Part shown: positions 10,428 to 57,507 of the stretch, one piece after another
Layout of the letters: every line of letters begins with the position of its first letter
Numbering within the stretch: the stretch's first letter is position 1
Assembly: GCA_021158245.1 (NCBI GenBank)
Contig: JAGGVB010000058.1
Coordinates: forward strand, 24,349-88,348
Direction of reading: 5' to 3'
Source: a bacterium
GTDB taxonomy: Bacteria > Zhuqueibacterota > QNDG01
Length of the DNA: 64,000 nt
Made by a program: the position numbers and the translations under genes
Notes under the pieces: generated by a model
The model's database searches: none
Told to the model about the DNA's origin: nothing
The model's input: the letters and a program-made list of their open reading frames with translations, nothing else

Positions 10428-10432
10428 AGCCA

Positions 10433-14003: not shown

Positions 14004-14022
14004 CCTTAAAAAGGGGCTATTC

Positions 14023-14397: not shown

Positions 14398-14430
14398 ATT
14401 AATCTTCCGGTTCATGCCGGATGGAGGTGT

Positions 14431-17497: not shown

Positions 17498-17500
17498 ACT

Positions 17501-18766: not shown

Positions 18767-18822
18767 TGCCGGTTTTTTAAAAAGGGAATTAATCACAGTT
18801 TGTACATATCAAGGAGGCCATA

Positions 18823-29856: not shown

Positions 29857-29972
29857 GCTTTGACCTGTTGAATAATTTAAATGTTTTCACCTGGGGGAAT
29901 CTAAAAAATGTATTAATAATTACCTTTAATGACAAGCATTTTTCTCAAATTAATGTATAAATTTTAAGTTTT

Positions 29973-31626: not shown

Positions 31627-32370
31627 TCAGATCCTCAAAATATCTCCATCATTGAGTAAAACAACATTCCGGTCGGAATTATCGAATTTTCCGTCCGGAT
31701 TAAAATCCGGCGGGAAATGAGTGAGAGCTATTTTTTTAATATTAAATTTTTCTGCAAATGAAAGAACCGAATCCATTGAAATGTGGGCAGTTTCAGAAAT
31801 AAGAAGGGGAGAGTTAAAAGCATAATCTCTCAGATGGTTTAATGACCGGACATCAGACGAGTAGATTGCCTTTTTATTTCTTTCTGTGATGATAATGCTG
31901 AAACTGTACACATTCTCATTAAATTTTTCCCCTTGCTTTCCGGCATTCAGATGATCATTGCCTGCTGCTGTTAAAGAAAGGCTGCTATTTTTAAAAAAAA
32001 TACCATTTTTCAAAGGCCTGAAAATAAGCCTGAACGGAAGCGTTTCAGGCCTGATTCTCATGTAAGGTAAAAAGGTTCGGAATGCATCGCATAAATATTC
32101 AGGTGCATAGATTATGAAATCATTTTTACGTTCAGTTAGTTTCATCCAGAACAGAAGGCCGAAAATGCCGGCAGAATGATCAATATGAGCATGAGTGATT
32201 ACTCCTGCATCAATTTCTGCCGGATCAATGCCGAATTTTGCAAGCTGACGTGCCGTACCGTCACCTATATCAAGCAGTATTTTTGTACTGTCTGCCTGCA
32301 GAATCAGGCATGAACTTCCCCTGTTTGGAACAGGCATACTGGATGATGTACCGATAGCCTGTAAAATCAT
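31627..32370 (-). CDS. MBL-fold metallo-hydrolase (RNase Z/ElaC-like size)
   Basis: HAHIDHSAG (HxHxDH) motif; 247 aa. Confidence 0.7.
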   Translation of the reverse strand: MILQAIGTSSSMPVPNRGSSCLILQADSTKILLDIGDGTARQLAKFGIDPAEIDAGVITHAHIDHSAGIFGLLFWMKLTERKNDFIIYAPEYLCDAFRTFLPYMRIRPETLPFRLIFRPLKNGIFFKNSSLSLTAAGNDHLNAGKQGEKFNENVYSFSIIITERNKKAIYSSDVRSLNHLRDYAFNSPLLISETAHISMDSVLSFAEKFNIKKIALTHFPPDFNPDGKFDNSDRNVVLLNDGDILRI

Positions 32371-33290
32371 TTTAATTTATTCTTAAAAAAATTAACGGTT
32401 TCTTCTATCCCCTGTTCAAGGCTGCGTGAGGGTTCCCATTCCAGAACTTTTTTTGCTTTGTCGAAACTAATTACACTGCGCTGCTGTTCCCCTGGTTTTG
32501 CAGGGCCGTGCTTTTCTTCGGCATCTGCACCTATTGCTTTGTTTATCATACTGAAAAGTGTATTAACATCTGTCTCAATGCCTGTGCCGACGTTAAAAAT
32601 ATTATTACCGTCTATGTTCAAACCTGCCATGTTGGCTCTGACTACATCCTTTACAAATACATAATCTCTCGTCTGAAGTCCGTCGCCGTTTATTACAGGC
32701 TTTTCTCCTTTGAGAAGTCTTTCTGTGAATATAGCAACAACTCCTGCTTCTCCGTGGGGATTTTGTCTTGGGCCGTAAACATTTGCATATCTGAAGATTG
32801 TATATTTTAGATTGTATTCTCTTGCATAGAAAAACAGGTATTTTTCCACTGCGAGTTTTGTGATGCCATAAGGCGAGACCGGACGGGTAGGGTGTGTTTC
32901 ATCACACGGGAATACATCCTGATCTCCGTAAATCGCTCCGCCTGTAGATGCAAACATAAAACGCTTTACTTTGTATTTAACAGCATTCTGTAAGAGGTTC
33001 AATGTACCTTTGACATTTACATCTGCGTCAAACAGAGGCTCTTTCACAGACCTTCTTACATCCATTTGTGCTGCGTGGTGACAAACAATGTCAAATTTTT
33101 CAATGCTGAATATTTTATCAATTTGTTCGGCTCTTATATCAATAAGATAGAACTTGGCTTTGGGGTTAAGGTTCGCAATGTTCCCTGCCTCAAGGTTGTC
33201 AATTACAACAACATCGTGCCCCTGGTTTATAAAGCCGTCTGTAATGTGTGACCCAATAAAACCTGCACCGCCGGTTACGAGTATCTTCAC
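32367..33290 (-). CDS. NAD-dependent sugar-nucleotide epimerase/dehydratase (SDR extended family)
   Basis: TGGAGFIGSH Rossmann motif and YxxxK catalytic motif (SPYGITKLAVE). Confidence 0.85.
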   Translation of the reverse strand: MKILVTGGAGFIGSHITDGFINQGHDVVVIDNLEAGNIANLNPKAKFYLIDIRAEQIDKIFSIEKFDIVCHHAAQMDVRRSVKEPLFDADVNVKGTLNLLQNAVKYKVKRFMFASTGGAIYGDQDVFPCDETHPTRPVSPYGITKLAVEKYLFFYAREYNLKYTIFRYANVYGPRQNPHGEAGVVAIFTERLLKGEKPVINGDGLQTRDYVFVKDVVRANMAGLNIDGNNIFNVGTGIETDVNTLFSMINKAIGADAEEKHGPAKPGEQQRSVISFDKAKKVLEWEPSRSLEQGIEETVNFFKNKLK

Positions 33291-33454
33291 TAATTCCTCC
33301 TGTTAAATCCGTATGAATTGTATACATGAATTATAGTAATAAGCAGGGAAAAAATCAAGATATTATGTTATATGAAATAATAATTATAATTAACGGCAGG
33401 ATCGTTAGGTTATGAAGATAAAAAAAGGTTGATAAAAAGAATATTTTCACGTAG

Positions 33455-38066: not shown

Positions 38067-39440
38067 TTAACCTTCAAGCCCTGATTCATTAATAAGCAAT
38101 TGCTCAAGAGATTGGGGCTTTCTGATTATTTTTATTTCTCCTTCTGAAGTAAGCATAAGCTCTGCTGCCTGAAGATAGGAGTTGTAGTTAAACGGTGCAA
38201 GGGATGAGCTGTAAGCCCCTGTGCCGCCTATTATAATATAATCCCCTGTCTCAGGTTTTACCATTGCACGGGGAGCAACTGTACCGTCTTCATTTAAACA
38301 TTGTGAATCGCCTGTTTCACAGCATCTGCCTACAATTACACCTGGAACAGAGCTGTTAGCAGAACTCATATAATCGGACCACAGCAGATTTCCATGTTTT
38401 GCTACAATATAAAATGGATGTCTGGCGCCGTACATAAGCGGGCGCGGATTTGATTCCATTCCTCCGTTCAGAAGAAAGAACCAGAAGGTCTCGTCTTTAT
38501 TTGGTTTTATGTCAATTACTGAAGTTACAAGATAACCGCTGTTTGCAACAGCATATGTACCCGGTTCAATCTCAAGAATTATTTTTCTTCCTGTCTGCCT
38601 GTAAAAATTTATAAATTTCTCTTTTGTATATTCTCCCAGCTCTGTCGTGTCTGCGGCGGTTTCGTCAGGCATGCGTGCAACTTTGAACCCTCCTCCGAGA
38701 TTTATTATTCGGACGTCAGGGAAAAATCTTTCAACAGTGCTCAGAGTTTTGTTAACATTTTTCTTCCAGTCTTCAGGATTGCTTCCTGATCCTATATGCA
38801 CATGGATGCGGGTGAATTTAATATTGTTTTCCTCTGCAAAGGAGAGAACTTTGGGAAGTTCCGACTCCTGTACTCCAAAACTTGCATAATGATCACCTGT
38901 GTTTCTTGTGGCAGATGCTCCTGAACCCTGTCCAGGGTGAATCCTTATGGAAAGATCAATTTTGTTCTTAATTACAAATGATGCGATGTTTTTAAGCTGG
39001 AGAAAAGAGCACACGGTGTATTTAAGCCCTTTTTTCATCATATTTTGAAGAAGGATAAGATCTTCTCCATGCGGGACATCCTGGCTTGTAAGAAGGATTT
39101 TATTAAAAGATATCCCTGCAATACAGGCTCTTGCAGCTTCGTTTAAAGAGCCTGCGTCAAACATCATGCCCTGTTTTTTTATGAGTTCAAGTACAGCCCT
39201 TGACGGATTTGCTTTGATAGCGTATCTCACATTTATTCCAAATGCGTTCGGCATTCCCGTTAATGTACTGCACTGCCTCTCAATCATACTACCATCATAA
39301 AAGTAAAAGGGAGTTTCGCACATTCCTGCCGCGTTAAGAATGTCTCTGCTTGTTATATTTCCTTCAGGAAAGAGTTTATCTTTTGGCAAAAAATCAGTAT
39401 TAATATTTAAATCGGCCACATTAAGCTCCATGTTCCACAT
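38067..39440 (-). CDS. lysA: Diaminopimelate decarboxylase-like (Orn/DAP/Arg decarboxylase family 2)
   Basis: PLP-lysine motif YAIKAN, HPGQGSG, HVHIGSG, GGGF and CCETGD motifs of alanine-racemase-fold decarboxylases; overlaps the upstream aspartokinase gene by 20 nt and follows a lysine riboswitch. Confidence 0.6.
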   Translation of the reverse strand: MWNMELNVADLNINTDFLPKDKLFPEGNITSRDILNAAGMCETPFYFYDGSMIERQCSTLTGMPNAFGINVRYAIKANPSRAVLELIKKQGMMFDAGSLNEAARACIAGISFNKILLTSQDVPHGEDLILLQNMMKKGLKYTVCSFLQLKNIASFVIKNKIDLSIRIHPGQGSGASATRNTGDHYASFGVQESELPKVLSFAEENNIKFTRIHVHIGSGSNPEDWKKNVNKTLSTVERFFPDVRIINLGGGFKVARMPDETAADTTELGEYTKEKFINFYRQTGRKIILEIEPGTYAVANSGYLVTSVIDIKPNKDETFWFFLLNGGMESNPRPLMYGARHPFYIVAKHGNLLWSDYMSSANSSVPGVIVGRCCETGDSQCLNEDGTVAPRAMVKPETGDYIIIGGTGAYSSSLAPFNYNSYLQAAELMLTSEGEIKIIRKPQSLEQLLINESGLEG

Positions 39441-40791
39441 TAATAAACATTTTTGTATTTAACGTACGTTCAAAAAAATATTCATGCAGGGTTGAAACAA
39501 CATGTTTTATATCCTGCTCATCAATTACAAAACTGATATTTATTTCAGAAGCTCCCTGTGAAACCATATGAATAGGTACATCATTGAACAGATGGAATAT
39601 TCTTCCCATTATTGAAGGGTCATTTTTTAAAGTGCTGCCTACCACACAGACAATAGCTTTATTCTGCTGAAATTCAACTTTTGCAAATTCCTTAAGTTCC
39701 ATGATTATCTCATGAAGATGTTCCGTTTTGTAAATTGTAATTGAGACACTTACTTCTGACGTTGTTACAAGGTCTACAGGTGTTTCAAATTTATCAAAAA
39801 CTTTAAATATCGCAGACATAAATCCATAAGCCATCAGCATTCTTGTGGAAGTCACTGTAATTACAGTTATTCCCTCTTTGTAGGCAATTGATTTAACAAG
39901 TCCTGGTTCAGAAGGTACACTTTGGTCAAAGGTTATGAGAGTACCCTGTTCCGACGGATGCATGGAATTAAGAACTACTACCGGGATATTTTTTTCAATG
40001 GCCGGAATAAGCGTTGCAGGATGAAGAACTTTTGCTCCGAAATATGCAAGTTCCGCAGCTTCGTTAAAAGTCATCTGTTTTATCCTTCTTGCCTCGGATA
40101 TAATTGAAGGGTCAGCAGTAAGCACACCGTCAACATCTGACCATATCTCCACTCTGTCTGCTTCGAGAAGCGCACCGAATATAGTTGCTGAGTAGTCAGA
40201 GCCTCCCCGTCCCAGAGTTGTAGTTCTGCCAGAATTGTCACTTCCTACAAATCCCTGAATAACAGGTATTATTCCTTTGTCGGTGAGAGGGATGAGATAC
40301 TTCTTAATTCGTACAAATGAGGATGTCAAGTCAGGTTTTGCACAGCCGAAAGAACTGTCTGTAAGAAGAATATCCCGGGCGTCTGCCATTTGTGAATTTA
40401 TACCGCTTTTCCTCAGATTTGCAGATAGAAGATTTGCAGACAGAAACTCTCCTGTGCTGACAATTGAATCTGATATCTCAGGAGTGCATTGTGCTTCCGA
40501 AGATACTATCTCTTCTAAAAATGAGAAAGCGAATAATAAGCACTCTTCCCATTCAGAATCATGCAAAAACAGAAGCTCTCCTGTCATTATGTGGCGTTTT
40601 TTAATGTCAGATATTATCTCGTTTTTATTAGTATTTTTTTTACATAGCCTTAAAAGATTGTCTGTTACTCCGCTCATTGCAGAAACAACTATTATGGGAT
40701 TTTCCTGTTTCCTTGATTTTATTATGTTTGTTGCTCTCTGGACAGCTTCTGCATCTTTAAGAGAGGTACCTCCGAACTTCATCACTATCAT
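39421..40791 (-). CDS. lysC: Aspartate kinase (ACT-domain regulated)
   Basis: N-terminal MIVMKFGGTSL kinase motif and C-terminal tandem ACT domains. I place the start at 40791 (ATG with AAAGGAAAA SD); the track start at 40845 lies inside a terminator hairpin. Confidence 0.85.
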   Translation of the reverse strand: MIVMKFGGTSLKDAEAVQRATNIIKSRKQENPIIVVSAMSGVTDNLLRLCKKNTNKNEIISDIKKRHIMTGELLFLHDSEWEECLLFAFSFLEEIVSSEAQCTPEISDSIVSTGEFLSANLLSANLRKSGINSQMADARDILLTDSSFGCAKPDLTSSFVRIKKYLIPLTDKGIIPVIQGFVGSDNSGRTTTLGRGGSDYSATIFGALLEADRVEIWSDVDGVLTADPSIISEARRIKQMTFNEAAELAYFGAKVLHPATLIPAIEKNIPVVVLNSMHPSEQGTLITFDQSVPSEPGLVKSIAYKEGITVITVTSTRMLMAYGFMSAIFKVFDKFETPVDLVTTSEVSVSITIYKTEHLHEIIMELKEFAKVEFQQNKAIVCVVGSTLKNDPSIMGRIFHLFNDVPIHMVSQGASEINISFVIDEQDIKHVVSTLHEYFFERTLNTKMFINVEHGA

Positions 40792-40811
40792 ATAATTTTC
40801 CTTTATACAAA

Positions 40812-40850
40812 TAAAAAAGCTGATTGAATCCGCAGAAGTATTCAATCAGC
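40812..40850 (-). terminator. Intrinsic terminator hairpin (riboswitch expression platform) in the lysC leader
   Basis: On the minus strand: GCTGATTGAAT-ACTTCTGCGG-ATTCAATCAGC followed by TTTTTTAT, a perfect 11-bp stem plus U-tract, about 20 nt upstream of the lysC start. Confidence 0.65.
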
Positions 40851-40854
40851 CCTG

Positions 40855-41050
40855 GATATTTTTAAAGTCCCGGAATGATTAAATAGCGCTCCACGGACTG
40901 TTCCGTGACAGACCGGCTGTTGTTCACGAACCGGGCCGACAAACAAACTTGCGGATATTTGTCTGTCTCGGCCTGCTTTCCTTTCTTTTCCGGGAAAATT
41001 GCCTCCGCGGGCATCCCCGAAAGGTACTGATAAAACAGGCACCTCTATCT
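40855..41050 (-). promoter_or_regulatory. Lysine riboswitch (L-box, Rfam RF00168-like) aptamer
   Basis: Minus-strand RNA starts ...UAGAUAGAGGUGCC...AGUA and contains GAAAGG...GCCGAG, CUGUCACGGAAC and GUGGAGCGCUAUUU. These parallel the conserved L-box segments of the B. subtilis lysC leader (GAUAGAGGUGCGAAC...GAGUA, GGCUGUCAAGAAA, UGGAGGGCUAUCU). It lies 5' of lysC-lysA, with a -35 TTGCAT / -10 TATTAT promoter at about complement(41065-41093). Confidence 0.65.
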
Positions 41051-41340
41051 AATCGAATTTGAATATAATAAAGAATGAAATGCATTGATGCAAGCATTTT
41101 CTGTAAAAATTAAAATATTTGTTGTGTTTAAAGGGGAAAATCGTATATTTTTAGTGTAGCATCCGATATCAATGTTTATCCCTTACTTCCCGGATTATAC
41201 TGCTAATGATTTTTAATTATCATCTATAACAGCCCTGAGCTGGAATCTGCTTCGGGCTGTTTTTATAAATTATTGCATAATTTTTTGAGATAATTTAACA
41301 CGATTTGTTTGTTAATAAATTTAATTACACTTCGTAAATT

Positions 41341-41595: not shown

Positions 41596-42278
41596 GAAAA
41601 CTATCCTTCATTTAAATATGTGTTTCGTACGTTTCTGTCTTCTGCAAAAAAAAATCGTGTTAACAGTGCTTGACTGTCATCCACGAATTTATTTTTGGTC
41701 TTATCGATGTTTTTACACGTCCTACAAATAAAACGAAAACAAGAAAACAGCTACGTACTATGAATTATTAAGAATAATATACAAAATGATAATTGATAAT
41801 GCAAGCAATTTCTTTAATTAAAACGATAAAATTTATATAATATGATAGTAAATCCTGTAATTATAGAGAGTTAACTGATAGAGGCTGTGTTTGTACGGGA
41901 AAATGCACAGATATTCATGGCAAAAGCAGCGTTGATTGATGCTATTCATTAAAAATACAATATTGGTACGTTAATTGCCTTAATTGGTTATGTAGTTAGA
42001 TGGTTCTTTGATAAAAATTTATTAACACTTTATATGTGATGATTGATAACTATATATAAATCAATTAGATATGGTTAAGATAAAAAATAATTATTATGTT
42101 AAATAATTAATTAATACTGGAATTAATTTGGCTGTTATAGGGTAAAAAATCACCGGTTACTGTTTAAAATAGTAGTCAGGACGTGCTGCAGAGGCAGTTG
42201 AATATGCAACTATAGGAGGTAAATATGTTCAAGATTGAAAAAAAAGAGTGGGGGTACTAAATTATTTTTAGTGATTTT

Positions 42279-43340: not shown

Positions 43341-43648
43341 TAAATAGCTATCATTGAGCAAAAAAAATGGGTCATTTCGATTCGGCTTCAGCGGGATATA
43401 AATTTTATCCACGAATTACACGAATGACACTAATAAAAAAGCATAAAAATAAATTTTATTAATTCGTGAAACCCTGTCAGTCCATTGGCGGATTGGCGGG
43501 CAAAGAGGCTGTGGTGTGGGGAGCATTTCCTTTTTTCTCTCCTGCTTCTGAATAATACACTGAAAATATGTCAATTCACAAAAGCACAGTGCCTGATACA
43601 GGCTGTAAATGGAGAATATTCAGCCCGACTTTAGAAGGCTATTTGTAA

Positions 43649-43664
43649 TGGCACGGCTTTTGCC
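43649..43664 (+). promoter_or_regulatory. Sigma-54 (RpoN) promoter, -24/-12 elements TGGCAC-N5-TTGC
   Basis: TGGCACGGCTTTTGCC matches the consensus TGGCACG-N4-TTGCW at 11 of 12 positions with correct GG/GC spacing, about 110 bp upstream of the first che gene. Confidence 0.6.
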
Positions 43665-43775
43665 GAAATACAAAAGTGTCTGGAAAATGTACATATTTTA
43701 GTATATAACATTACTTTTTGAAAAGTTCACTGTTCATTGTGAAAAAAGATCAGCATAAGGTAAGAGGAGGAAAAA

Positions 43776-44150
43776 TTGCCAGGTAAAATCCTTATTATTG
43801 ATGATGATATGGGCATGAGGATGCTTCTTTCAAAATTTCTGCAGCGCCAGGGCTTTGAAACACTCGTTGCCGAGGATGGCCTTGAAGGAGTGGAAATTGC
43901 CAAAAAAACAAACCCTGACCTGATTATAATGGATGTTGTGATGCCTAGAATGGATGGAATTACAGCTGCGCGGCTGATTAAATTCTACAAACCGCTGAGC
44001 AATGTGCCGATAATTTTTCTAACGGCAAAAGATGACAGTAAGGAAATTGAACTTGCTCAGGAAACCCGTGCAGATGTATATATTACGAAACCATTTGATG
44101 TCCACAAAGTGATTGAAGTTGTTGAAGATCTTTTATCAAAAACTCAATAA
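43776..44150 (+). CDS. cheY: CheY-like single-domain response regulator
   Basis: REC domain with DDD acidic pocket, phospho-acceptor D (IIMDVVMP), T (FLTAKDD) and K (ITKPF); TTG start 7 nt after a GGAGG SD. Confidence 0.85.
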   Translation: MPGKILIIDDDMGMRMLLSKFLQRQGFETLVAEDGLEGVEIAKKTNPDLIIMDVVMPRMDGITAARLIKFYKPLSNVPIIFLTAKDDSKEIELAQETRADVYITKPFDVHKVIEVVEDLLSKTQ

Positions 44151-44174
44151 CGGACATGGGAGATTGATTAATAT

Positions 44175-44672
44175 ATGAGTGATAGAGATCAGTATTTGAT
44201 ATTTGTGCTGGATAAAAAAAAGTTTGCAATCAACATAAAATCTGTAAAGAGAATAGCTCTGTCTGTGGAAGTTACAGACCTCCCTGAAGGGCCTGGTATT
44301 GTGATGGGTATAATAAATGTAAAAGGCCAGGTTATTCCTGTTGTAAACATTAGGAAAAGGTTTGGAATGCCGGGAAAAGATATAGACCTGATGGATCATT
44401 TTATAATTACTAAAACTTCAACACGAATAGTAGCTATGGTAGTTGATGATGTTATCGAAATAACAAAGATTGCAAACAATAAGAAGATACTTAAGGATGA
44501 AATACTTCCGGGAATGAAGCATGTAGCAGGTGCATTGAAAATTGCAGGAGACATTGTTCTCATTCATGATATCGAATCTTTCCTCAGCCTCGGAGAGGAA
44601 AGGGAGATTGATAAGGCATTAAAAAAAGTTAACGAAAAAGCAAAAAAGGGAAAGAAAACGAGTAAAAAATGA
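44175..44672 (+). CDS. cheW: CheW-like coupling protein
   Basis: Single CheW domain (LIFVLDKKKFAINIKSVKRIA...PGIVMGIINVKGQVIPVVNI). Confidence 0.85.
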   Translation: MSDRDQYLIFVLDKKKFAINIKSVKRIALSVEVTDLPEGPGIVMGIINVKGQVIPVVNIRKRFGMPGKDIDLMDHFIITKTSTRIVAMVVDDVIEITKIANNKKILKDEILPGMKHVAGALKIAGDIVLIHDIESFLSLGEEREIDKALKKVNEKAKKGKKTSKK

Positions 44673-46138
44673 TATCCCGCGTACCAAATATTCTTCTTGA
44701 CCAGCTAAGCGTATTTATTAACAGCGAAATGGGACTCCATTTTCCAAAGGAGAGGAGATTGGATCTGCTGCGCGGTGTAAGCGAATCTGCAGAAGAATTT
44801 GGATTCACCGATGTAGAAATGTGTATTAACTGGTTACTTTCATCACCTTTAAAAAAACGTCAGATAGAAATACTTGCCCGCCATCTTACAGTTGGCGAGA
44901 CATATTTTTTCCGTGAATCAAGAGTCTTTCAGGCACTTGAAAAAGATATTATTGCAGGTATTATTCAGGCACGGAGAAATGGCACTAAAACTATTTGTAT
45001 ATGGAGTGCAGGATGCTGCAGCGGAGAAGAACCCTATTCAATTGCAATACTTTTAACCAGAATGATACCTGATATTGATTCGTGGAAAATTGTGATTTTC
45101 GGTACTGATATAAATATAGATTTCCTTGAAAAGGCACAAAAAGGAATTTATCGCGAATGGTCATTCAGGAATACTCCTTTCTGGATTAAAGAGAAGTATT
45201 TTACACGTATTGATGACGGAGTTTATGAGATAATTCCAGGGATAAAGCGGCTTGTAAATTTTAGTTATCTTAATCTCGTTAGTGTCGAGAACCCGTCATT
45301 TATTAATTTACAGTCTTTTGATCTTATCCTTTGCCGAAATGTTTTGATGTATTTTTCTCAGGGACAAGTCAGGTCGGTTATTAACAGATTTTATGAAGGG
45401 CTTAATGATAACGGATGGCTGATTGTAGGATCAAGTGAAGCATCCCATATCCTGTTTTCTCAATTTCAGACTGTCAATTTTCCCGGCGCGATTGTTTATC
45501 GTAAAGATACTTCCAAAACGCCTTTTGAATTACCGGAAATTACGCATGATGAACCAGATCTCCCTGAATTACATCCTGTTACTGTTACGGATTTTTCAAA
45601 ATTTATTACCACGGACAATGAAACCGAAGAAGAAGATGATTTTACAGAGGCAATTAACGCATTTGAGGCAGGGAACTATAAACTTGCAACTGAAATCCTG
45701 AAAAAAGTAGTCAATGATCCTGTTTTATCTGAGAATGTACAGGTTTATTTACTTCTGTCCCGCAGTTGTGCAAATCTCGGTAATTTAAAGCATGCACTGA
45801 ACTGGGTTGAAAAGGGCCTTAAACATAATAAACTTGATTTTCAATTATATCAGCTGAAAGCAGAGATTTATCAGGAAATGGGGAAGCTGGATAAGGCTGT
45901 AGAATCTTTGAAAAATGTAATATATTTGGAGCCTGACTCTTTTGTAGCGTATTTTATTCTCGGAAATATTTCGCATCAGCTCGGTAAAGATAAAGAAGCA
46001 AAAAAATGTTTTGAGAATGCTGAAAAGCTGCTCAGATTAAAAGAAAGAGATGATGTGTTGACTGAATTTGACGGAATTACTGCAGGAAGAATGATTCATG
46101 TGATAGAGAGTATGAAAAATACGGAGAATCCCGGATGA
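44669..46138 (+). CDS. cheR: CheR-type MCP methyltransferase with C-terminal TPR repeats (WspC/FrzF-like)
   Basis: CheR N-terminal and SAM-binding domain (IWSAGCCSGEEPYSIAIL), then about 150 aa of TPR (LLSRSCANLGNLKHALNWVEKGLKHNK...). Confidence 0.85.
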   Translation: MISRVPNILLDQLSVFINSEMGLHFPKERRLDLLRGVSESAEEFGFTDVEMCINWLLSSPLKKRQIEILARHLTVGETYFFRESRVFQALEKDIIAGIIQARRNGTKTICIWSAGCCSGEEPYSIAILLTRMIPDIDSWKIVIFGTDINIDFLEKAQKGIYREWSFRNTPFWIKEKYFTRIDDGVYEIIPGIKRLVNFSYLNLVSVENPSFINLQSFDLILCRNVLMYFSQGQVRSVINRFYEGLNDNGWLIVGSSEASHILFSQFQTVNFPGAIVYRKDTSKTPFELPEITHDEPDLPELHPVTVTDFSKFITTDNETEEEDDFTEAINAFEAGNYKLATEILKKVVNDPVLSENVQVYLLLSRSCANLGNLKHALNWVEKGLKHNKLDFQLYQLKAEIYQEMGKLDKAVESLKNVIYLEPDSFVAYFILGNISHQLGKDKEAKKCFENAEKLLRLKERDDVLTEFDGITAGRMIHVIESMKNTENPG

Positions 46139-46713
46139 CCGAGGAAAGTAAAAATTCTACTATTGAAAAAAATAATAGCATGAGTAAAATAATATACATG
46201 CCTGATAAAAAGGCGGTATTAAAAAAACGTGCAGAGGCTCTTGCAAAAGAGATGGCTGATGAATGGCAGGATAAGGATAAGTTCGAAGTTGTCGAGTTTA
46301 TTCTTGCATACGAGTTGTATGGAATTAAATCGTCTTTTGTACAGGAGGTTTACCCTTTAAAAAATTTTACTCCGCTGCCCGGCACGCCACCGTTTTTACT
46401 TGGAATTACGAATATTCGGGGAAGGATTGTTTCCATTGTTGATATTAAAAAGCTTTTTAATCTGCCTGACAGCGGTATTACTGACCTTAACAGAGTGATT
46501 ATAATTGAGAATGGAGAGAGTGAACTCGGTATACTGGCTGATAGAATAATGGGTATAAGAAATATTTCGGATGTTGATTTTAAAGCAAATTTATTGGTCA
46601 CAAGTGATACTATAGGAAATTATATACACGGGATTACCGAGGATAAATTAATTGTCCTTGATGTGGACAAAATATTTGGTGATAAAAGATTAATAATAAA
46701 CTCGGAAGTATAA
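46135..46713 (+). CDS. cheW: Second CheW-like coupling protein
   Basis: CheW domain (ILAYELYGIKSSFVQEV...LLGITNIRGRIVSIVDI) with an about 50-aa N-terminal extension. Confidence 0.8.
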   Translation: MTEESKNSTIEKNNSMSKIIYMPDKKAVLKKRAEALAKEMADEWQDKDKFEVVEFILAYELYGIKSSFVQEVYPLKNFTPLPGTPPFLLGITNIRGRIVSIVDIKKLFNLPDSGITDLNRVIIIENGESELGILADRIMGIRNISDVDFKANLLVTSDTIGNYIHGITEDKLIVLDVDKIFGDKRLIINSEV

Positions 46714-46751
46714 AAATATATTAATAAAATAAACTTTGCACGGAGTACACT

Positions 46752-48356
46752 ATGTTAAGAAATCTGAAATTAAAGACAAAAATCTTTTTCATCCCTTTTC
46801 TTGCAGGAATTATACTGCTTACGATTTTTATTACAGCGGGCTTGATCAAAACCCAAAATGATAAGCTCCTGAATAGTATCCGCACAGAATATCTACCGGT
46901 TCAGGTTTTTAATTCCGAACTTAAATCAATACTTCAGGAAATGAATAGTGTTGTTGAACATGCTGCTTTGACACGAAACAAAGTTTTGGCAAAACAGGCA
47001 GATATCATTCATCAGCAATTCATAGCGGAATTATCAAGGGCAGAATCTGATCCTGTAATTAAACTTAGTCTAATGCCTGATAAAAATGAGTATGATAGTT
47101 TTTCCAGTGCTTTTCTGGATGTTGTTGATAAAATATCATCAGGCAGCAGTAAGAATCTAATTAATAGAAGTTTACAAAAATTAAAACCCATGCATGATAC
47201 ACTCAACTCAATAATTCAAAAAAATATTGTTAGAGAAAAAAGAAACGTTAGTCAGGCATTTTCCAGCATAGGGTCCAAAAACAGATTATTAATTATTTTA
47301 ATAGGATTAATAATTTTTATTGGACTTGCAATGAGTATGGTATTATCAATAGCTGTAATAAAATCAGTAATGGAACCTCTTGACATTGTAGTTAATGTAG
47401 CAGAACAGGTTGCAGACGGCCAATTGACCATTGATATTCCGGAAACCGAAGGAACTGATGAAATGAGCTCACTCCTTAGAACTTTCAGGAGAATGGTTAT
47501 AAGCCTCAGGGAAATGGCTGTACAGATCAAGGAGGCATCTAATGCACTTGCTTCTTCTGCCGGCCAGATTTCTACATCTGTAACTCAGATTGCATCTGCA
47601 GCTGCAGAAACAGCATCTGCTGCTACAGAGACAAATACAACTGTTGAAGAGGTCAGGCAGACTGCAATTGATTCGAACAAAAAAGCAAAGCATGTGTCGG
47701 AAAGTGCTCAAAAGTCTGTAAAAATTTCACAGGCAGGTGAGAAAACCGTTGCGGAAACAATTGAAGAGATGCAGAGGATTGAAGAGCAGATGGAATCTAT
47801 TGCAGAAAGTATTATGCGTTTAAGTGAACATGGACAGGCAATAAGCAGTATTATTACTACTGTTGAGGACGTGGCAGAGCAGTCAAGATTATTGGCTGTT
47901 AATGCTTCAATTGAAGCTGTAAAAGCCGGAGAGCAAGGGAAGGGTTTTGCTGTTGTAGCACAAGAGGTCAGAACACTTGCTGAGCAGTCAAAACAGGCTA
48001 CAAACCGAATAAGAGCAATTCTTGACGAAATTCAGAAATCTACGAGTGAAGCTGTTATGAAGACGGAGCAGGGTACAAAGGCCGTTAAATCCGGAGTGGA
48101 ACAATCGGCAAAATCCGGTGAAACAATTCAAAGACTGGCTAACAGCGTTACTGAAGCAGCACAGGCCACTACCCAGATAGCAGTATCCAGCCAGGAACAG
48201 ACAGTCGGCATGGATCAGGTTGTATCTGCAATGGAATCAATAAAACAGGCCAGTAATCAGAATGTAAGTGCAACAAAACAGGTGGAAGCTGCTGCTCAGG
48301 ATCTTTACAATCTTGGACAGACTTTGATGGATATTGTGAAATTATATAAATTATAG
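46752..48356 (+). CDS. Methyl-accepting chemotaxis protein (2 TM, periplasmic region, HAMP, MA domain)
   Basis: Highly conserved signalling hairpin (RLLAVNASIEAVKAGEQGKGFAVVAQEVRTLAEQS); TM helices at about 10-30 and 170-195. Confidence 0.9.
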   Translation: MLRNLKLKTKIFFIPFLAGIILLTIFITAGLIKTQNDKLLNSIRTEYLPVQVFNSELKSILQEMNSVVEHAALTRNKVLAKQADIIHQQFIAELSRAESDPVIKLSLMPDKNEYDSFSSAFLDVVDKISSGSSKNLINRSLQKLKPMHDTLNSIIQKNIVREKRNVSQAFSSIGSKNRLLIILIGLIIFIGLAMSMVLSIAVIKSVMEPLDIVVNVAEQVADGQLTIDIPETEGTDEMSSLLRTFRRMVISLREMAVQIKEASNALASSAGQISTSVTQIASAAAETASAATETNTTVEEVRQTAIDSNKKAKHVSESAQKSVKISQAGEKTVAETIEEMQRIEEQMESIAESIMRLSEHGQAISSIITTVEDVAEQSRLLAVNASIEAVKAGEQGKGFAVVAQEVRTLAEQSKQATNRIRAILDEIQKSTSEAVMKTEQGTKAVKSGVEQSAKSGETIQRLANSVTEAAQATTQIAVSSQEQTVGMDQVVSAMESIKQASNQNVSATKQVEAAAQDLYNLGQTLMDIVKLYKL

Positions 48357-48392
48357 AGATGTTTTTATTAATCATAACGTGCAGGTGAAATT

Positions 48393-48818
48393 ATGCAGAT
48401 AAGTGATCCGGAGTTTTTTAAGCAGATTCTTGAGATGTTCAGAATGGAAGCGCAGGAGCATCTTGAAACGATATCTTCCGGTGTTTCGAAGCTTAAACAG
48501 GGAGTTACAGGGCTTGAACGCAAGGAAGTTGTGGAAACTATATTCAGAGCAGCCCACAGCCTGAAAGGTGCTGCAAGGACAGTTGGAATAACTGATCTCG
48601 AAGAAATCGGCCAGGAGTTTGAGAAAATATTTTCAATGCTGAAGCAGAAGGAATCCATGCTGACAGATGATACTTTTGAAATTTTTGATATTGCAGAGAA
48701 TCAGCTTGGGCTTCTGATAAAATCTGTTGACAAAGAAGGAAAGGTGCTGGGCGATAAATCAGAGCTTGTCAGGCTTATAAGCCAGATACATGAAAGAATA
48801 TTGCTGCAAAACGCATAG
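48393..48818 (+). CDS. Stand-alone HPt (histidine phosphotransfer) domain protein
   Basis: HPt helix with phospho-His context FRAAHSLKGAARTVGI; 141 aa. Confidence 0.7.
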   Translation: MQISDPEFFKQILEMFRMEAQEHLETISSGVSKLKQGVTGLERKEVVETIFRAAHSLKGAARTVGITDLEEIGQEFEKIFSMLKQKESMLTDDTFEIFDIAENQLGLLIKSVDKEGKVLGDKSELVRLISQIHERILLQNA

Positions 48819-48856
48819 AAAAAAATATAATTGCTAAAGGCTGGTAATTAGGAGAA

Positions 48857-51199
48857 ATGATGAAAAACGATGACGACTTTCTTAAAGAGCTTTTATCTAT
48901 GTTTAAGGTGGAGGCAGAAGAACATCTGAAAATTATATCTTCAGGCCTTATAGATCTTGAGAAAGCATCAGACGGTGACAGACTTGAAATTTTAGAAATA
49001 ATTTACAGGGAAGCGCACAGTTTAAAAGGTGCAGCAAGAGCTGTAAATCTTATCAAAGTAGAACATTTATGCCAGGCTCTTGAAAGTATTTTTGCTTTAT
49101 TTAAAAGCGGGGAACTTAATCCGTCAAGAGAAATATTTGATGTACTGCTTGATGCTGTTGATGTTGTATCAGATGCGGTTGATTCTCCTGATTCTACTGA
49201 TATTAATAATATTTACAACAAACTTGAGCGCATTGAAAACATGAGCGTGAAAACTGTATCAGAAAGTGAAGTCAAAAAAAATATTAAAAAGCAGGCAACA
49301 AATAAAAGGAAACCAGTTACTGTTAAAAAGAAAGAAACCGGTAGTAAAAAAGTAACTGAATCTCATAAAAAAGAAGATGTACCAGAAATAAAAGATGACA
49401 TAAAAAATGTTAAAAGAGTGGATACCAAACCAATTGTCACAGATACAATACGTATCCCCACGTCAAGAATGGATTCTATCCTTCTTCAGGTTGAAGAAAT
49501 GGTTTCTACCAAGCTTGGGACGGAGCAGGTTACAACTGATCTCAAAGAGGTCCTTATTACAATGGACATCTGGAGAAAGGAATGGGAAAAAGTATATTCT
49601 TCAATAAGAAGAGGGCCGTCAGGCAGATTGGAAATTCTAGATAAAAATTCGAGCGAAGCTGAAGCAGAGTTTTTTAATTGGAATTTTCATCAATTGAGAG
49701 ATGTTGATGACAAGCTTAACTATGTTTATAAACTTGCAGAAATAAATTTCCGTCAATTAAGCGGAATGATTGACAATCTTCTCGAAGATATGAAAACCAT
49801 ATTAATGCTGCCGTTTTCAACACTTTTAAAGTTGGTTCCGAAAGTGGTCAGGGATATCAGCCGGGATCAGGATAAGGATGTTGAGCTTGTTATGCGCGGC
49901 AGTACTACGGAAGTTGACAGAAGAATACTTGAAGAGATAAAAGACCCTCTCATCCATCTTTTAAGGAACTGTATTGATCATGGTATTGAAAAACCAGAGG
50001 AAAGAAAAAAAACAGGGAAGCCGGAACAGGGGATAATATCCATATCAATTTCTCAGATTGAAGGCGATAAAATTGAAATAGTGGTGGAAGACGACGGCGC
50101 AGGGATTAATCCTGAAAAAGTTAAGAAAACTGCTGTTCAAAGAGGGATAATAAGTGAGCAGGAAGCCAGGCATCTGAGTGAGAAAGAAGCTATTTCTCTT
50201 ATTTTTGAATCAGATCTCTCTACCAGCCCGATAATTACTGATATCTCAGGAAGAGGCCTCGGGCTTGCGATAGTACGTGAAAAAGTAGAAAAATTGGGCG
50301 GCTTGATTCAATTAGAGACAGAGACTGGTAAAAGGACACGCTTTCGTATTGTGATACCTGTTACACTTGCTACTTTTCGGGGTACCCTGATAGAGGCCGG
50401 AGGGAATAGTTTTGTTGTGCCGACTGTAAATGTGGAACGTGCAATGAGGCTGCCGGTTAAAAAAATAAAAACAGTTGAGAATAAAAGAGTAGTAACAATT
50501 CACAATAAAATGATTTCTTTAATCCACTTGAGCGATGTGCTTGGGTTGAGGCGTGATGTCGGAACTGCAGCACAATCAGATATGCTGCAGTTTGTTATAA
50601 TCAGATCTGCAAATAAAATGGTTGCACTCGGAGTGGATTCAGTAGTCAATGAACAGGAGTTTTTAGTTAAAGGCCTCGGAAAACAGATAATTCGTGTAAA
50701 AAATATTGCAGGAGCAACGATTCTTGGATCGGGAAAGGTGGTGCCTATTCTTAATGTCCCGGATATTATCAAATCCGCAGAAAAAGTAATATCTTCCCCC
50801 CTGCAGGAGGTATCAATGCAAAAAAAACAGGAAGAAAAGAAGTCTATACTTATTGCAGAAGATTCAATAACATCACGAACGCTGCTTAAAAATATTCTTG
50901 AATCAGCAGGATATTCTGTTAAAGCAACTGTTGACGGTGCTGATGCTTTTTCAGCTTTGCGAAGCGGCAGGTATGACCTTGTAGTCTCTGATGTGGAAAT
51001 GCCGAGAATGAACGGTTTTGAACTTGTGTCAAATATCAGGAAAAACAGATCAACAACAGACACTCCTGTGATTCTTGTAACAGGGCTTGAGTCCAAGGAA
51101 GACAGGGAGAGAGGTATTGAAGTAGGAGCTAACGCCTACATTGTAAAAAGAAGTTTTGATCAGAGTAATTTACTTGATGTTATAAGTAAGCTAATTTAG
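48857..51199 (+). CDS. cheA: Hybrid CheA histidine kinase with C-terminal receiver (HPt-P3-HATPase-CheW-REC; WspE/FrzE-like)
   Basis: HPt (YREAHSLKGAARAV), N box LLRNCIDHGIE, G1 DDGAGIN, G2 GRGLGLAIV, CheW-like P5, then a REC domain (ILIAEDS...VVSDVEMPRMNGFEL...LVTG). Confidence 0.9.
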   Translation: MMKNDDDFLKELLSMFKVEAEEHLKIISSGLIDLEKASDGDRLEILEIIYREAHSLKGAARAVNLIKVEHLCQALESIFALFKSGELNPSREIFDVLLDAVDVVSDAVDSPDSTDINNIYNKLERIENMSVKTVSESEVKKNIKKQATNKRKPVTVKKKETGSKKVTESHKKEDVPEIKDDIKNVKRVDTKPIVTDTIRIPTSRMDSILLQVEEMVSTKLGTEQVTTDLKEVLITMDIWRKEWEKVYSSIRRGPSGRLEILDKNSSEAEAEFFNWNFHQLRDVDDKLNYVYKLAEINFRQLSGMIDNLLEDMKTILMLPFSTLLKLVPKVVRDISRDQDKDVELVMRGSTTEVDRRILEEIKDPLIHLLRNCIDHGIEKPEERKKTGKPEQGIISISISQIEGDKIEIVVEDDGAGINPEKVKKTAVQRGIISEQEARHLSEKEAISLIFESDLSTSPIITDISGRGLGLAIVREKVEKLGGLIQLETETGKRTRFRIVIPVTLATFRGTLIEAGGNSFVVPTVNVERAMRLPVKKIKTVENKRVVTIHNKMISLIHLSDVLGLRRDVGTAAQSDMLQFVIIRSANKMVALGVDSVVNEQEFLVKGLGKQIIRVKNIAGATILGSGKVVPILNVPDIIKSAEKVISSPLQEVSMQKKQEEKKSILIAEDSITSRTLLKNILESAGYSVKATVDGADAFSALRSGRYDLVVSDVEMPRMNGFELVSNIRKNRSTTDTPVILVTGLESKEDRERGIEVGANAYIVKRSFDQSNLLDVISKLI

Positions 51200-51214
51200 G
51201 GAAGATAAAAACCT

Positions 51215-52327
51215 ATGATTAAAGTTCTTGTCACAGAAGATTCCTCTGTTATAAGAAGTTATCTCGAACATGTACTCAACAATGATCCTGAACTGACTGT
51301 TGTGGGAACTGCATGTAACGGGCTTGAAGCAGTTGAAAAGGCTGCTGAATTAAAGCCTGATGTTATTACAATGGATATTCACATGCCGGGAATGGACGGA
51401 TTTGAAGCTACAAGAAAAATTATGGAAACAAATCCTGTCCCGATTGTTATATGCAGTGCAAGCTGGGATCCCACTGAAGTTAGTAAAACTTTTCGGTCAA
51501 TGGAAGCGGGAGCAGTTGCAGCCCTGGAAAAACCGAGAGGATTTTCTCATACTGACAGTGACGATTCCCTGCGTCAGCTTATAGATACCGTAAAAGCAAT
51601 GTCAAGTGTCAAAGTCGTAAGGAGATGGGCACGTTTAAGAAAGAAAGAAACGGTTATTACTTCGCATCATGTGCATACAGGGCATAAAAAAAGAAGCGGG
51701 CGGAAAACTTACAAAATAGTTGCCGTGGGATCTTCAACAGGTGGGCCTCTTGCACTTCAGAGTTTGCTTTCAAACATAGACAGAGACTTTCCTGTCCCAA
51801 TAGTAATTGTTCAGCACATTGCACCGGGGTTTCTTACAGGGCTTGCAGACTGGCTTGGAAAGACAACAAAGTACGATGTGAAAATAGCTGAAAATAATGA
51901 AAATATTTTACCTCGGAAAGCATATCTTGCTCCTGACAGATTTCATATGCTGATAACAAAAGATTTTAAAGTAAAGCTGATAAGCGGAGAAAGCAGAGAT
52001 CGGCTTTGCCCGTCAGTAGCTCATTTGTTTAAATCTATAGGAGATGAATTCGGAATGTCAGGTGTAGGTGTTTTATTAACCGGGATGGGTAGAGACGGAG
52101 CTGCAGAATTAAAAGAAATGCATGATAAGGGGGCCCTTACCTTTGCACAGGACGAGGATAGCTGTATTGTATTCGGAATGCCGGGTGAAGCTGTAGCTCT
52201 CGGCGCAGCTGACAAGGTGCTTCCGTGCCCGGATATAGCTGAAGAACTTAATAAAATGTTGATAGATAATGATGCGGAATTCAGGGATAAAGAGAAAAAA
52301 AGAGTTATAACTCATACTAATCAGTGA
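51215..52327 (+). CDS. cheB: Chemotaxis methylesterase CheB (REC + methylesterase)
   Basis: REC (VLVTEDS...ITMDIHMPGMDG) and CheB catalytic domain (VAVGSSTGGP, GMGRDGA, catalytic H in VQHIAPGF). Confidence 0.9.
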   Translation: MIKVLVTEDSSVIRSYLEHVLNNDPELTVVGTACNGLEAVEKAAELKPDVITMDIHMPGMDGFEATRKIMETNPVPIVICSASWDPTEVSKTFRSMEAGAVAALEKPRGFSHTDSDDSLRQLIDTVKAMSSVKVVRRWARLRKKETVITSHHVHTGHKKRSGRKTYKIVAVGSSTGGPLALQSLLSNIDRDFPVPIVIVQHIAPGFLTGLADWLGKTTKYDVKIAENNENILPRKAYLAPDRFHMLITKDFKVKLISGESRDRLCPSVAHLFKSIGDEFGMSGVGVLLTGMGRDGAAELKEMHDKGALTFAQDEDSCIVFGMPGEAVALGAADKVLPCPDIAEELNKMLIDNDAEFRDKEKKRVITHTNQ

Positions 52328-52336
52328 GAAAATATT

Positions 52337-55300
52337 ATGTCAATGCAAGATTTAAGACCAATTGAAGCCGATATTGAAATATTAGTTGTGGAAGACAGTC
52401 CGACTCAGGCAATGCATTTAAAATACATACTTGAGCGGAGAAATTATACGGTACATATGGCAACGAACGGCAAGGATGCCCTTGAAATGATGCGGAAACG
52501 TAAACCGACTATCGTGATAAGTGACATTCTGATGCCTGAAATGGACGGGTACGAATTCTGCCGCCAGATACGTGCCGATGAACAGCTGCAATATGTCCCT
52601 GTAATCTTGTTAACACAACTTTTTGATCCGAGAGATGTGATAAGAGGTCTGCTCAGCGGAGCTGACAATTTTGTTACAAAACCCTACAGTGAACAATTCC
52701 TTGTTTCCAGAATTCAGTACATACTTGCAAATCAGGAACTTAGAAAGAACTCAATTACTGAAATGGGTATAGAAATTATTTTTGCAGGGCAGAAACATTT
52801 TATAACTTCCGACAGAATGCAGATTCTGGATCTTCTGTTTTCAACTTTTGAGAATGCTGTACAGAGAAATCAGGAACTTGAAGAGACTAATAAAGAATTG
52901 AGAAGAGCAATAGAGACAATAGAGACAATCAATGAAGTAACAGGCAAGTTGAACAGGATGCTTATGCCGGAAGATGTTGCACGTGCAATCGGAGACGGTG
53001 TCAAAAAACTCATTGACTATGATGAGTGTATTGTATATTCGATTGATGAAAGTAAAAAATATCTTATCCCGATATTTGCAGGCCAGAGACAGGGAGAGAA
53101 AAACAGCGATAAAGTTAAAAAGTTAAAAATCGGAGAAGGGATTGTGGGCCTTGTCTATTCCCGTGGAAAACCTGAAATGGTGGGGGATATAACAAAGCAC
53201 CCCAAGGCCAGGTATCTGAAGAACAAAAATGTCCCGACATATTCCGTTCTTGCAGTACCTATGCAGTATGAAAACGAGACAATGGGAGTTATAGCACTGC
53301 TTAAAACAGGGCTGCATCAGTTCAGTGAATCCCACATGCGTACTCTTTTAATTCTTGCAGGACAGGCTGGAGTTGCAATGGAGAATGCCCGGCTCCTGCA
53401 GGAAGAGAAGAGGAGGATAAGACAGCTTTCTCTGATTAATGAGATTTCACGAAAAATGGTGTCAACTCTTGACGTGGAAGAACTAAGCGTTTATGTTGTA
53501 GAGTCAATTCAAAATGAATTCAAAGAGGATACAATACTGCTTCTCGTTAAAGATGAAGATGAGAATAAACTGGTAATTGGAGCTCATGCGGGTATTGAAA
53601 GTAAAAAATTCCATGACGGCTGGATTTTGGAAAAAGACTCCTCTGCTGTATGGAAGGCTGCAAAATCCGGTGAAGTTGTTACTGTAAATGATATTAAGAA
53701 AATAAAGGATCTGCAGCCGCTAATTGCAGGTATTCGTTCGGAAATAGCAGCCCCTATTAAGAAAGGGGATAAACTGCTTGGAGTTCTGCACATAATGAGT
53801 AAAAAGAGTGATTCGTTTAATGAAAAGGATTCCGCTTTAATGAAAATGCTTGCGGATCAGATTGCAATGGCACTTGAGAATGCAAGATTATATGAAAGCG
53901 AAAGAAAAACAAGTGAACTTGCACAGCAGGCTAACAGAGCAAAAAGTGAATTTCTTGCCAATATGAGTCATGAGATCAGGACTCCTATGAACAGCATTAT
54001 AGGATTCTCCGATCTGCTGCTTCAGGAGAATCTGCCCGAAGAATTGGTCGATTTCGCAAAGACTATCAAGCTTAACGGTGAAAGCCTTCTGGAAATTATT
54101 AACCAGATTCTTGATCTGGCAAAGGTCGAAACAGGGCGTATGGAAGTGGATGTTGTGGAGTGTAATTTATCCGAACTTGTTGAAAATGTTTCACAGCTGC
54201 TCAGGCCGAGAGTTCTTGACAAAGGGCTTAAGTTTAAAGTTTCGACTGAACCTGAACATCTTCCGTATATTGAAAGCGACAGTCTTAAGATTCGTCAGAT
54301 TATGGTTAATCTCCTCGGCAATTCGGTCAAATTTACTGAAGACGGGGAGATAGGGTTTAGTGTAAATGTACGGAAACAGAAGAATGCCAGAGGTATGCTG
54401 GAAGTACATGTATCAGATACCGGTATTGGAATAGCCCCGAACAAACATCAAGCTATATTTGAATCGTTCACTCAGGCTGATGCGTCAATGACACGCCGGT
54501 TTGGGGGAACAGGCCTTGGCCTATCATTGAGCAAGCAGATGGTTGAACTGTTAGGCGGCAAAATCTGGTTTGAATCTGACCTCGGAAAAGGGACTACATT
54601 CCACTTTAGCGTGCCTGTAAGGATAATTTCGGAAAAAGTCGGAGTTCCTGTTAAAAAAGTGCAGAAGGCACAAATAAAAGCTGTAGGTGCCGGAAAAGGA
54701 AAAACAAAGCAGATAAGTATACAGACAAAAAAGAAGCGTAAAGAGCCGCTTGTGCTTTTAATAGAAGATAACGGCAGTGCAATGGAACTGCTTCAGAGAT
54801 ATCTTAAACGTGACGGCTATGAAGTGCAGTGCAGTACAACAGGTGATGATGGAATTCTTAAGGCAAAATTCTACAGGCCTGATGCTATTATTCTGGAAAT
54901 TTTATTACCTGGAAAGATGGACGGGTGGGAAGTGCTTAGAAATCTTAAATCAAGTACTTTAACCAAAGATATTCCGGTCATAGTATGTTCCGTACTTTCA
55001 AACCAGAAAAAGGCGTACAGCCTTGGTGCAGTGGAGTATATTGAAAAGCCTGCACAGGAGAAGGCCCTTCTTGATACTTTACACAAGTCCATAGGGCTGA
55101 GTGATAAGAAAAATAAGGAAGTCCTTGTTGTAGATGATGACAAATCCGTACACGTGCTTTTCGGCAAACTTCTTAAAAGCATGGGTGTAATTGTGAAGAA
55201 TTTTGAGAATGGGAATGATGTAGTAAAGTATCTTGAAAGCCCGCATCCTATTGCACTTGTAATACTGGATCTTTTAATGCCTGGTGTAGACGGGTTTGAG

Positions 55301-57347: not shown

Positions 57348-57507
57348 TGAGGGATGGATTTTAATGATGAATAAGTAATGTATTGAGAGGCTGTCACTTC
57401 CGAAGAAGCCTGAATCACAATAACATGATTATTGAATCCATGGAAACAAAATCTCATTATCGTAAGATTTGAATGCAAACATACGAGGCCAGGGAGGAAG
57501 TTTGAGC

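Follow-up and report, generated by a model that had tools for sequence, protein, structure and literature searches.

The window analysed here, a stretch of 64,000 nucleotides with 39% G+C, contains a 435-nt intergenic region (43341-43775) that is followed on the + strand by a ten-gene operon encoding a chemosensory pathway and a phosphorelay. A bacterial enhancer-binding protein (bEBP) is encoded 12 kb from this region. For both this protein and the CheR-TPR protein of the operon, the closest relatives with a name carry the label 'candidate division KSB1 bacterium'. The genes, which were assigned on the basis of Pfam domains, overlap or are separated by gaps of at most 38 nt:

43776-57347, + strand: ten-gene chemosensory/phosphorelay operon
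43776-44150, + strand: gene 1, CheY-like receiver with a TTG start
44175-44672, + strand: gene 2, CheW
44669-46138, + strand: gene 3, CheR-TPR fusion
46135-46713, + strand: gene 4, CheW
46752-48356, + strand: gene 5, HAMP-MCP
48393-48818, + strand: gene 6, stand-alone Hpt protein
48857-51199, + strand: gene 7, CheA-REC with a C-terminal receiver
51215-52327, + strand: gene 8, CheB
52337-56224, + strand: gene 9, hybrid kinase of 1295 aa (GAFx2-HisKA-HATPase-RECx4-Hpt)
56202-57347, + strand: gene 10, REC protein of 381 aa

The operon has the set of proteins expected of a Wsp-like or 'alternative cellular functions' (ACF) cluster, namely a CheR-TPR fusion, a CheA-receiver hybrid, two CheW proteins, CheB and an MCP. 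Both the fusion and the hybrid are characteristic of such clusters, Wsp being one example (PMC3447774), and the operon has in common with them the CheW-CheR(TPR)-CheW core, the CheA with its C-terminal receiver, the CheB and the single MCP. Unlike Wsp, it has a stand-alone and highly conserved CheY in first place and an additional Hpt protein, and it ends in the 1295-aa hybrid kinase and a REC protein, not in REC-GGDEF. An output protein of the WspR type is absent, the last gene having no GGDEF match in Pfam or NCBIfam. In this gene (56202-57347), the ca 250 residues after the receiver match nothing in Pfam or NCBIfam, and to the eye the C-terminus has the faint look of a histidine-kinase ATPase. 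A search for a terminator 3' of position 57347 found none, and the transcript of the operon may therefore extend into the HAD gene at 57469-58293.

The intergenic region in front of the operon contains the following elements:

43649-43664, + strand: -24/-12 motif TGGCACGGCTTTTGCC, an exact TGGCAC-N5-TTGC
43649-43654, + strand: -24 element TGGCAC, with the GG at 43650-43651
43659-43664, + strand: -12 element TTTGCC, with the GC at 43662-43663
43674-43677, + strand: predicted transcription start, at about 43675 if the C of the GC is taken as -12, as is standard for sigma-54
43709-43748, + strand: leader block CATTACTTTTTGAAAAGTTCACTGTTCATTGTGAAAAAAG, about 40 bp (ca +35 to +74), a candidate regulator-binding site
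43765-43770, + strand: Shine-Dalgarno sequence AGGAGG, 5 nt 5' of the TTG start

The preliminary description of this DNA pointed to a sigma-54 motif with exact -24/-12 spacing, and this is borne out at 43649-43664, where GG and GC are 10 nt apart. The exact pattern TGGCAC-N5-TTGC has this single match on both strands of the 64-kb window, compared to an expectation of 0.10 (the mean of 100 dinucleotide-preserving shuffles of the window, nine of which contain it at least once). When one mismatch is permitted, one extra site appears, at 41964, versus 2.98 expected. The canonical sigma-54 consensus is TGGCACG-N4-TTGCW, with glnAp2, nifH and pspA as examples of such promoters. When all GG-N10-GC sites of the window are scored against this extended consensus, TGGCACGGCTTTTGCC ranks first with 11 of 12 positions. 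Within the 435-nt intergenic region, the motif is correctly oriented and precedes the TTG codon of cheY by 113 nt; a search of the + strand of this region gave no sigma-70-like site.

We now turn to the conservation of the motif in orthologous operons. The six near-identical strain contigs obtained from exact-protein look-ups (mean column identity 100%) are uninformative in this respect; identical proteins are encoded on metagenome contigs from JGI 3300016457 and SRR14000037/38, with intergenic DNA essentially equal to that of the window. In the loci called L010, L013, L016 and L014, the CheR-TPR protein is 85%, 67%, 48% and 46% identical to that of the window, respectively. L010 and L013 align well with the window from TGGCAC onward, and their DNA 5' of the motif cannot be aligned with it. 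The equivalent site is TGGCACAAGTTTTGCC in L016 and TGGCACAAGTTTTGTA in L014, the latter having GT in place of GC at -12.

A scan blind to the promoter was also carried out, in which alignment A5 of 30 CheR-TPR proteins was searched against metagenome contigs, yielding 80 loci. The 2.5 kb before cheR was scanned on the + strand in the 62 loci with at least 1100 nt of upstream DNA, including those found previously. All members of the close clade (the window, L010, L013, L014, L016, L021 and L023-L029) have a site matching at least 10 of the 12 positions, located 1011-1150 nt before cheR. Three of the remaining 49 loci have a + strand site, none of them at the homologous position, and the minus strand, used as a control, gives no match in the clade and six across all 62 loci. 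According to tblastn with the Che proteins of the window, the motif-bearing loci are exactly those with a cheY-first operon; in the cheW-first relatives, the motif is absent from the homologous position. A CheR-TPR scan of reference genome contigs gave only two archaeal TPR matches besides one Blastocatellia locus with 43% identity.

The order of the genes in the operon is repeated in L010, L013, L014, L016 and L024-L028. Across the clade (L010-L029), the CheY of the first gene is 71-97% identical, compared to 62-85% for CheW1, CheR and Hpt in the closest distinct relatives (L010, L013 and L025) and 36-51% in the others, which indicates that the receiver is far more constrained than the remainder of the pathway.

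In the aligned promoter and leader, L027 is equal to L026 and L021 to L013, and their removal leaves 11 distinct loci, that is, the window and ten other CheY-first operons with CheR proteins 45-85% identical. Anchored on TGG, the consensus of these loci is AaTGGCAC...tTTTGCC.AaaT. TGGCA is invariant (11/11), the sixth base is C in nine loci, and TTTGCC occurs in all but L014, which has TTTGTA. Four or five bases between the two elements are free to vary at a fixed -24/-12 distance, the 25 nt 5' of the motif show no conservation, and the start codon lies 89-118 nt past the -12 C. The Shine-Dalgarno sequence GGAGG is retained in most of the orthologous loci. The motif is strictly conserved amid neutral divergence of the adjoining DNA, and its co-occurrence with the CheY-first layout is perfect. 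Asymmetric conservation of the columns, AaTGGCAC...tTTTGCC with a free spacer, is the expectation for sigma-54 contacts, and the columns follow the pattern that would be expected from selection on these contacts and on nothing else nearby upstream.

There are also features that count against the sigma-54 reading. The base 3' of the GC is C in ten of the 11 loci, and not the A or T that usually follows the -12 GC in sigma-54 promoters, and L014 has GT at -12. The absence of a conserved upstream enhancer speaks against a classical sigma-54 promoter, for which this would be unusual. Weighing these points together with the conservation, we estimate the probability that 43649-43664 is a functional RpoN (sigma-54) -24/-12 promoter to be about 0.8. 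The earlier interpretation of the motif as such a promoter is supported by its occurrence at the homologous position in every CheY-first orthologous operon found and by the lack of a competing sigma-70-like site on the + strand. To judge from these alignments, TGGCACGGCTTTTGCC is very probably an ordinary, well-supported sigma-54 promoter of the ten-gene chemosensory operon.

One of the orthologous loci, L025, contains at ca 3464-3488 a terminator-like hairpin (CCCGGC-ttaat-GCCGGG followed by a T run) that ends about 2 nt before TGGCA. Its position argues for an independent start point rather than read-through, and leaves no space for a proximal upstream site in that locus.

If the site functions in this way, the sigma-54 holoenzyme would occupy TGGCAC-N5-TTGC as a closed complex, and opening of the DNA would require ATP-driven remodelling by a bEBP. 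A start near 43675 would give a leader of about 100 nt, after which the transcript would cover the ten-gene operon (43776-57347), with cheY first. The pathway so expressed would be a Wsp-like ('alternative cellular function') chemosensory system, coupled to a GAF/multi-receiver/Hpt phosphorelay.

Besides the promoter, the only other conserved cis element is the leader block, as seen from alignments A2 and A4 and from the alignment of 13 loci. Its consensus in the clade is CCTTTTGAAAG-N8-TTCAT-N2-3-TGAAA. The word CCTTTTGAAA(G) is found downstream of the promoter in ten of the 11 loci, versus at most five in shuffles; it emerged from the same k-mer method as was used for the fruitless upstream search described below. 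Among all DNA examined, matches to the regular expression of the block are confined to these che leaders, and the window has the block only once. Internally, it has the dyads CTTT-TG-AAAG and TTCA-N3-TGAA, and two copies of TGAAA 21 nt apart. We considered whether the leader could be a structured RNA, and this was rejected, since there is no Rfam match at E values up to 1, no excess of structure (fold z = -0.28) and no compensatory pairs. An upstream open reading frame was likewise rejected, because in the alignment, read by eye, L023 has a stop codon after four codons. We take the block to be a candidate binding site for a protein, which could act as a downstream enhancer or as an operator.

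Two sets of repeats upstream of the motif had been proposed as activator sites (UAS):

43484-43499, + strand: tandem ATTGGCGG x2, candidate UAS; the repeat is real and the enhancer role unsupported
43410-43468, no strand assigned: inverted repeat CACGAATTA ... TAATTCGTG, candidate UAS; at chance level and unconserved

The direct repeats do exist, being more exactly ATTGGCGG ATTGGCGG. The inverted pair, placed originally at about 43400-43470, is also present but narrower, with the arms CACGAATTA at 43410-43418 and TAATTCGTG at 43460-43468 separated by 41 nt. Simulating the 308-nt upstream stretch 2000 times with a Markov model produced an 8-mer tandem duplication in 12 runs and a 9-nt inverted repeat in 204. 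For its location, the tandem is thus mildly unusual, with ca 1.7 such duplications expected per 64-kb window, and the inverted repeat is at chance level. Further perfect tandem 8-mer duplications are found in the window at 37991/38008 and 53111-53114.

Both the ATTGGCGG tandem and the CACGAATTA inverted repeat are missing from L010 and L013, and the tandem is shared with no orthologous locus among the 11 distinct ones. Searches for other upstream elements gave only A/T-rich words of low complexity above shuffled controls. This was the case for k-mers common to five loci and for motifs of k = 8-10 in the 11 loci, both up to -320, and for pairwise 14-mer islands on both strands up to the end of the upstream gene. 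The assignment of the repeats as enhancers is thus unsupported, as they occur in neither L010 nor L013 and no upstream motif exceeds the shuffles. Given the conservation, regulatory contacts to DNA are more likely made at the leader block (43709-43748) than at the non-conserved upstream repeats.

The bEBP that had been put forward as matching the promoter is encoded 12 kb away:

28123-33290, minus strand: five-gene cluster of epimerase, MBL-fold hydrolase, bEBP, LptE and TPR genes, in the same order as in L017-L020
30469-31626, minus strand: sensor-less bEBP with AAA+ and HTH_8 domains (Pfam) and a GSFTGA loop; link to the promoter unsupported

In this 385-aa protein, the Sigma54_activat domain begins at residue 14 and is followed by an AAA lid and, at the C-terminus, by HTH_8; an N-terminal domain is absent. 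The PF00158 match (E = 4.8e-72) identifies it as an AAA+ activator. Its ORF overlaps that of LptE and abuts that of the MBL-fold protein, and since its ATG directly adjoins the stop codon of this preceding gene, no N-terminal domain has been overlooked. The Walker A motif (GESGTGKE), the Walker B motif and the GSFTGA loop are intact, and this implies use of sigma-54 by the organism. A search for rpoN in the window and in the 10 kb past each end found no such gene, which counts against the sigma-54 reading. The 120 best homologues are all sensor-less proteins of 368-400 aa, with the Walker A motif within approximately the first 60 residues (the first 50 in 117 of them) and with GSFTGA (91) or GAFTGA (29) as the contact loop.

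The preliminary description held that this bEBP is the only one in the window and lacks an N-terminal regulatory domain, and both statements agree with the Pfam and tblastn results, the latter detecting no other sigma-54 activator in the window. No second bEBP is present within 10 kb past either end, which makes it the single one in ca 84 kb. It is important to note that the genome may encode many bEBPs, so the presence of just one in a 64-kb window says little. The PspF-like architecture is correct in that the protein consists of AAA+ plus HTH only, but it is not a PspF orthologue. It falls below every NCBIfam equivalog cut-off, including that for PspF (TIGR02974, 317.8 vs 443.55 bits), and it has no pspA-type neighbour; the likeness to PspF is thus one of architecture only.

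The neighbours of the bEBP gene are instead those of the epimerase, MBL, LptE and TPR proteins, and this order is kept in L017-L020, which represent two distant lineages (58-62% bEBP identity, 54-60% G+C). None of these four loci has a che operon within 6 kb of the cluster. Such a conserved and coupled cluster suggests an envelope-related role for the bEBP, or an MBL-fold partner. There is no sigma-54 motif near the bEBP gene in the window, L017 or L019, and the region 5' of it contains neither a sigma-54 motif nor the leader block. A good sigma-70-type promoter, TTGATT-17 nt-TATAAT, is found at 33330-33358 on the minus strand; the epimerase-MBL-bEBP operon begins with a GTG codon ca 40 nt further on. 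This indicates that the bEBP is probably not under sigma-54 control, and also that the organism appears to use canonical sigma-70 promoters.

In the 12 other promoter-bearing loci, no bEBP is encoded within the DNA examined, and in L014 and L016 the operon is located in another neighbourhood (TrxB-ArsR-Trx, secretin/PilT). The bEBP family is not tied to the che operon, and the 12-kb proximity carries therefore no weight. The proposed match between the bEBP and the promoter is accordingly unsupported, the protein belonging to a widespread, LptE-linked and sensor-less family. We found no literature linking sigma-54 with LptE, nor any linking cheOp3 with RpoN. Most likely, the activator of the promoter is encoded elsewhere in the genome and could, for example, be an NtrC-type response regulator fed by the Hpt domains of the operon. 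The bEBP of the window could also be a general activator that serves this promoter among others.

A number of alternative explanations were considered for the motif itself. The sequence TGGCA-N7-TGCC(A) could be the dyad operator of a dimeric regulator, with the real promoter elsewhere in the region. TGGCA and TGCCA are reverse complements, and the exact TGGCA-N7-TGCCA occurs in five of the 11 distinct loci. The conservation is asymmetric, however, as the TTT before GCC is conserved with no matching AAA after TGGCA, and the last base of the right arm varies between A, G and T. Considering also that no alternative + strand promoter was found in the intergenic region and that 11 of 12 positions of the motif agree with the sigma-54 consensus, we regard such an operator as very unlikely. 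Chemotaxis operons are often sigma-28 dependent, and another option is therefore a motility promoter of the sigma-28 (FliA) type, for which GCCGAAAT at 43662-43669 would provide the -10 element. The resemblance to GCCGATAA is partial, and L016 reads GCCGATAT at this place. A FliA promoter would have a TAAA -35 element and 15 nt to a GCCGATAA -10 element, and this reading was rejected. No locus has a TAAA-like -35 element 15 nt upstream of GCCGAAAT, the region there being unconserved; the invariant TGGCA would occupy a spacer that is supposed to be free; and the G after GCC is A or T in six of the 11 loci. Sigma-28 control is on these grounds highly improbable. The least credible option is a chance match without function. 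Nine of the 100 window shuffles do contain at least one exact match, but the motif is found at the homologous position in all ten other distinct loci, where the flanking DNA is saturated with changes, and this retention effectively refutes it.

As to activation, the upstream ATTGGCGG tandem, the CACGAATTA inverted repeat, or both, could be enhancers bound by the sensor-less bEBP, whose activity would then be controlled by a partner. The repeats are real, the tandem is locally unusual (12/2000 simulations), and they lie ca 150-240 nt 5' of the -24 element, which is a normal distance for enhancers. Moreover, the bEBP has a DNA-binding HTH_8 and no sensor domain, it is the single one within about 84 kb of the genome, and its gene is translationally coupled to that of the MBL-fold protein, a possible partner. 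On the other hand, the repeats are missing in L010 and L013, whose CheR proteins are 85% and 67% identical, and the 11 loci have no upstream motif in common. Members of the bEBP family on distant contigs have the same epimerase-MBL-bEBP-LptE-TPR setting, with che operons absent from the surrounding 6 kb, and in L014 and L016 the promoter is present in a different neighbourhood with no bEBP in the DNA examined. We consider this arrangement decidedly unlikely. Somewhat less so, although still doubtful, is a variant of the sigma-54 reading in which the leader block would be the enhancer of the promoter family. A bEBP would then act from inside the transcribed leader throughout the KSB1-like clade, possibly the sensor-less, lptE-adjacent one as a partner-tuned general activator.

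Turning back to the sigma-54 promoter as the preferred reading, we compare it with known systems. With the canonical promoters it shares GG and GC elements 10 nt apart, the agreement at 11 of 12 positions, the location ca 100 nt 5' of an operon's first gene, and a genome that by implication encodes bEBPs. Unlike these, it has a conserved C after the GC and no conserved upstream activator sequence, and the only conserved neighbouring element is downstream, in the leader.

A possible analogy is provided by the FleQ-dependent flagellar promoters of Pseudomonas aeruginosa, where, according to the title of Jyot et al. 2002 as quoted in PMC3424551, enhancers can lie 3' of the RpoN site. As in those promoters, the operon here may be seen as related to motility or behaviour, and the best candidate for a regulator site is in the transcribed leader. 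No FleQ-type gene is present in the DNA examined. To our knowledge, the leader block has no evident resemblance to published FleQ boxes.

The bEBP of the window can be compared with PspF, HrpR/S and LafK, which have been described as 'type Ic' bEBPs without a signal-recognition domain (Francke et al. 2011, PMC3162934). It has the same architecture, AAA+ plus HTH_8 with no N-terminal sensor, but unlike PspF it adjoins epimerase, MBL, LptE and TPR genes and not pspA. Finally, the Che3 system of Myxococcus xanthus, the output of which is the NtrC-like activator CrdA (PMC3147164), offers an earlier example of a chemosensory pathway that does not serve motility and is linked to sigma-54-dependent transcription. 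The bEBP of Che3 is the pathway's output, and its gene is next to those of the pathway, whereas here sigma-54 would act on the promoter of the operon itself, and no bEBP is encoded at the locus.

These results assign sigma-54 control, with strong comparative support, to a clade of CheY-first Wsp-like operons in an uncultured KSB1-like candidate phylum. They define two cis elements under selection, the -24/-12 promoter and the leader block, and provide a testable handle on when these organisms deploy the chemosensory pathway. They also correct two tempting inferences, namely that the upstream repeats are activator sites and that the nearest bEBP is the activator. In other respects this is routine promoter annotation.

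Some further features of the region can be mentioned. The runner-up sigma-54-like site of the window, TGGTACGTTAATTGCC at 41964-41979 (+), lies in the intergenic region between csp and a 112-aa ORF; it was set aside as a promoter, being absent in L010 and probably due to chance. Beyond the window, two well-placed sigma-54-like sites, which count in favour of the sigma-54 reading, were seen in the same genome, TGGCATTCTTATTGCA at 18968-18983 (-) of L103, ca 75 nt 5' of a gene for a 1223-aa PAS histidine kinase, and TGGTACGGAAACTGCA at 6710-6725 (-) of L101, ca 105 nt 5' of a gene for a TonB-dependent receptor. Within the window, the aspartate kinase gene at 39421-40845 has a lysine riboswitch (Rfam RF00168, 104 bits) in its leader, at 40876-41055 (-), and a dcw (division and cell-wall) cluster extends over 2608-20016 (+). 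In this cluster, MraZ, RsmH, FtsI, MurE, MurF, MraY and MurD are confirmed by Pfam matches in L103 and FtsW by L104, the remaining genes being assigned from ORF size only. Past the right end of the window, L101 (1-9821) carries a gene for an ECF sigma factor together with a partner-switching-like set that consists of a receiver protein, two STAS proteins and an RsbW-like HATPase_c_2 protein.
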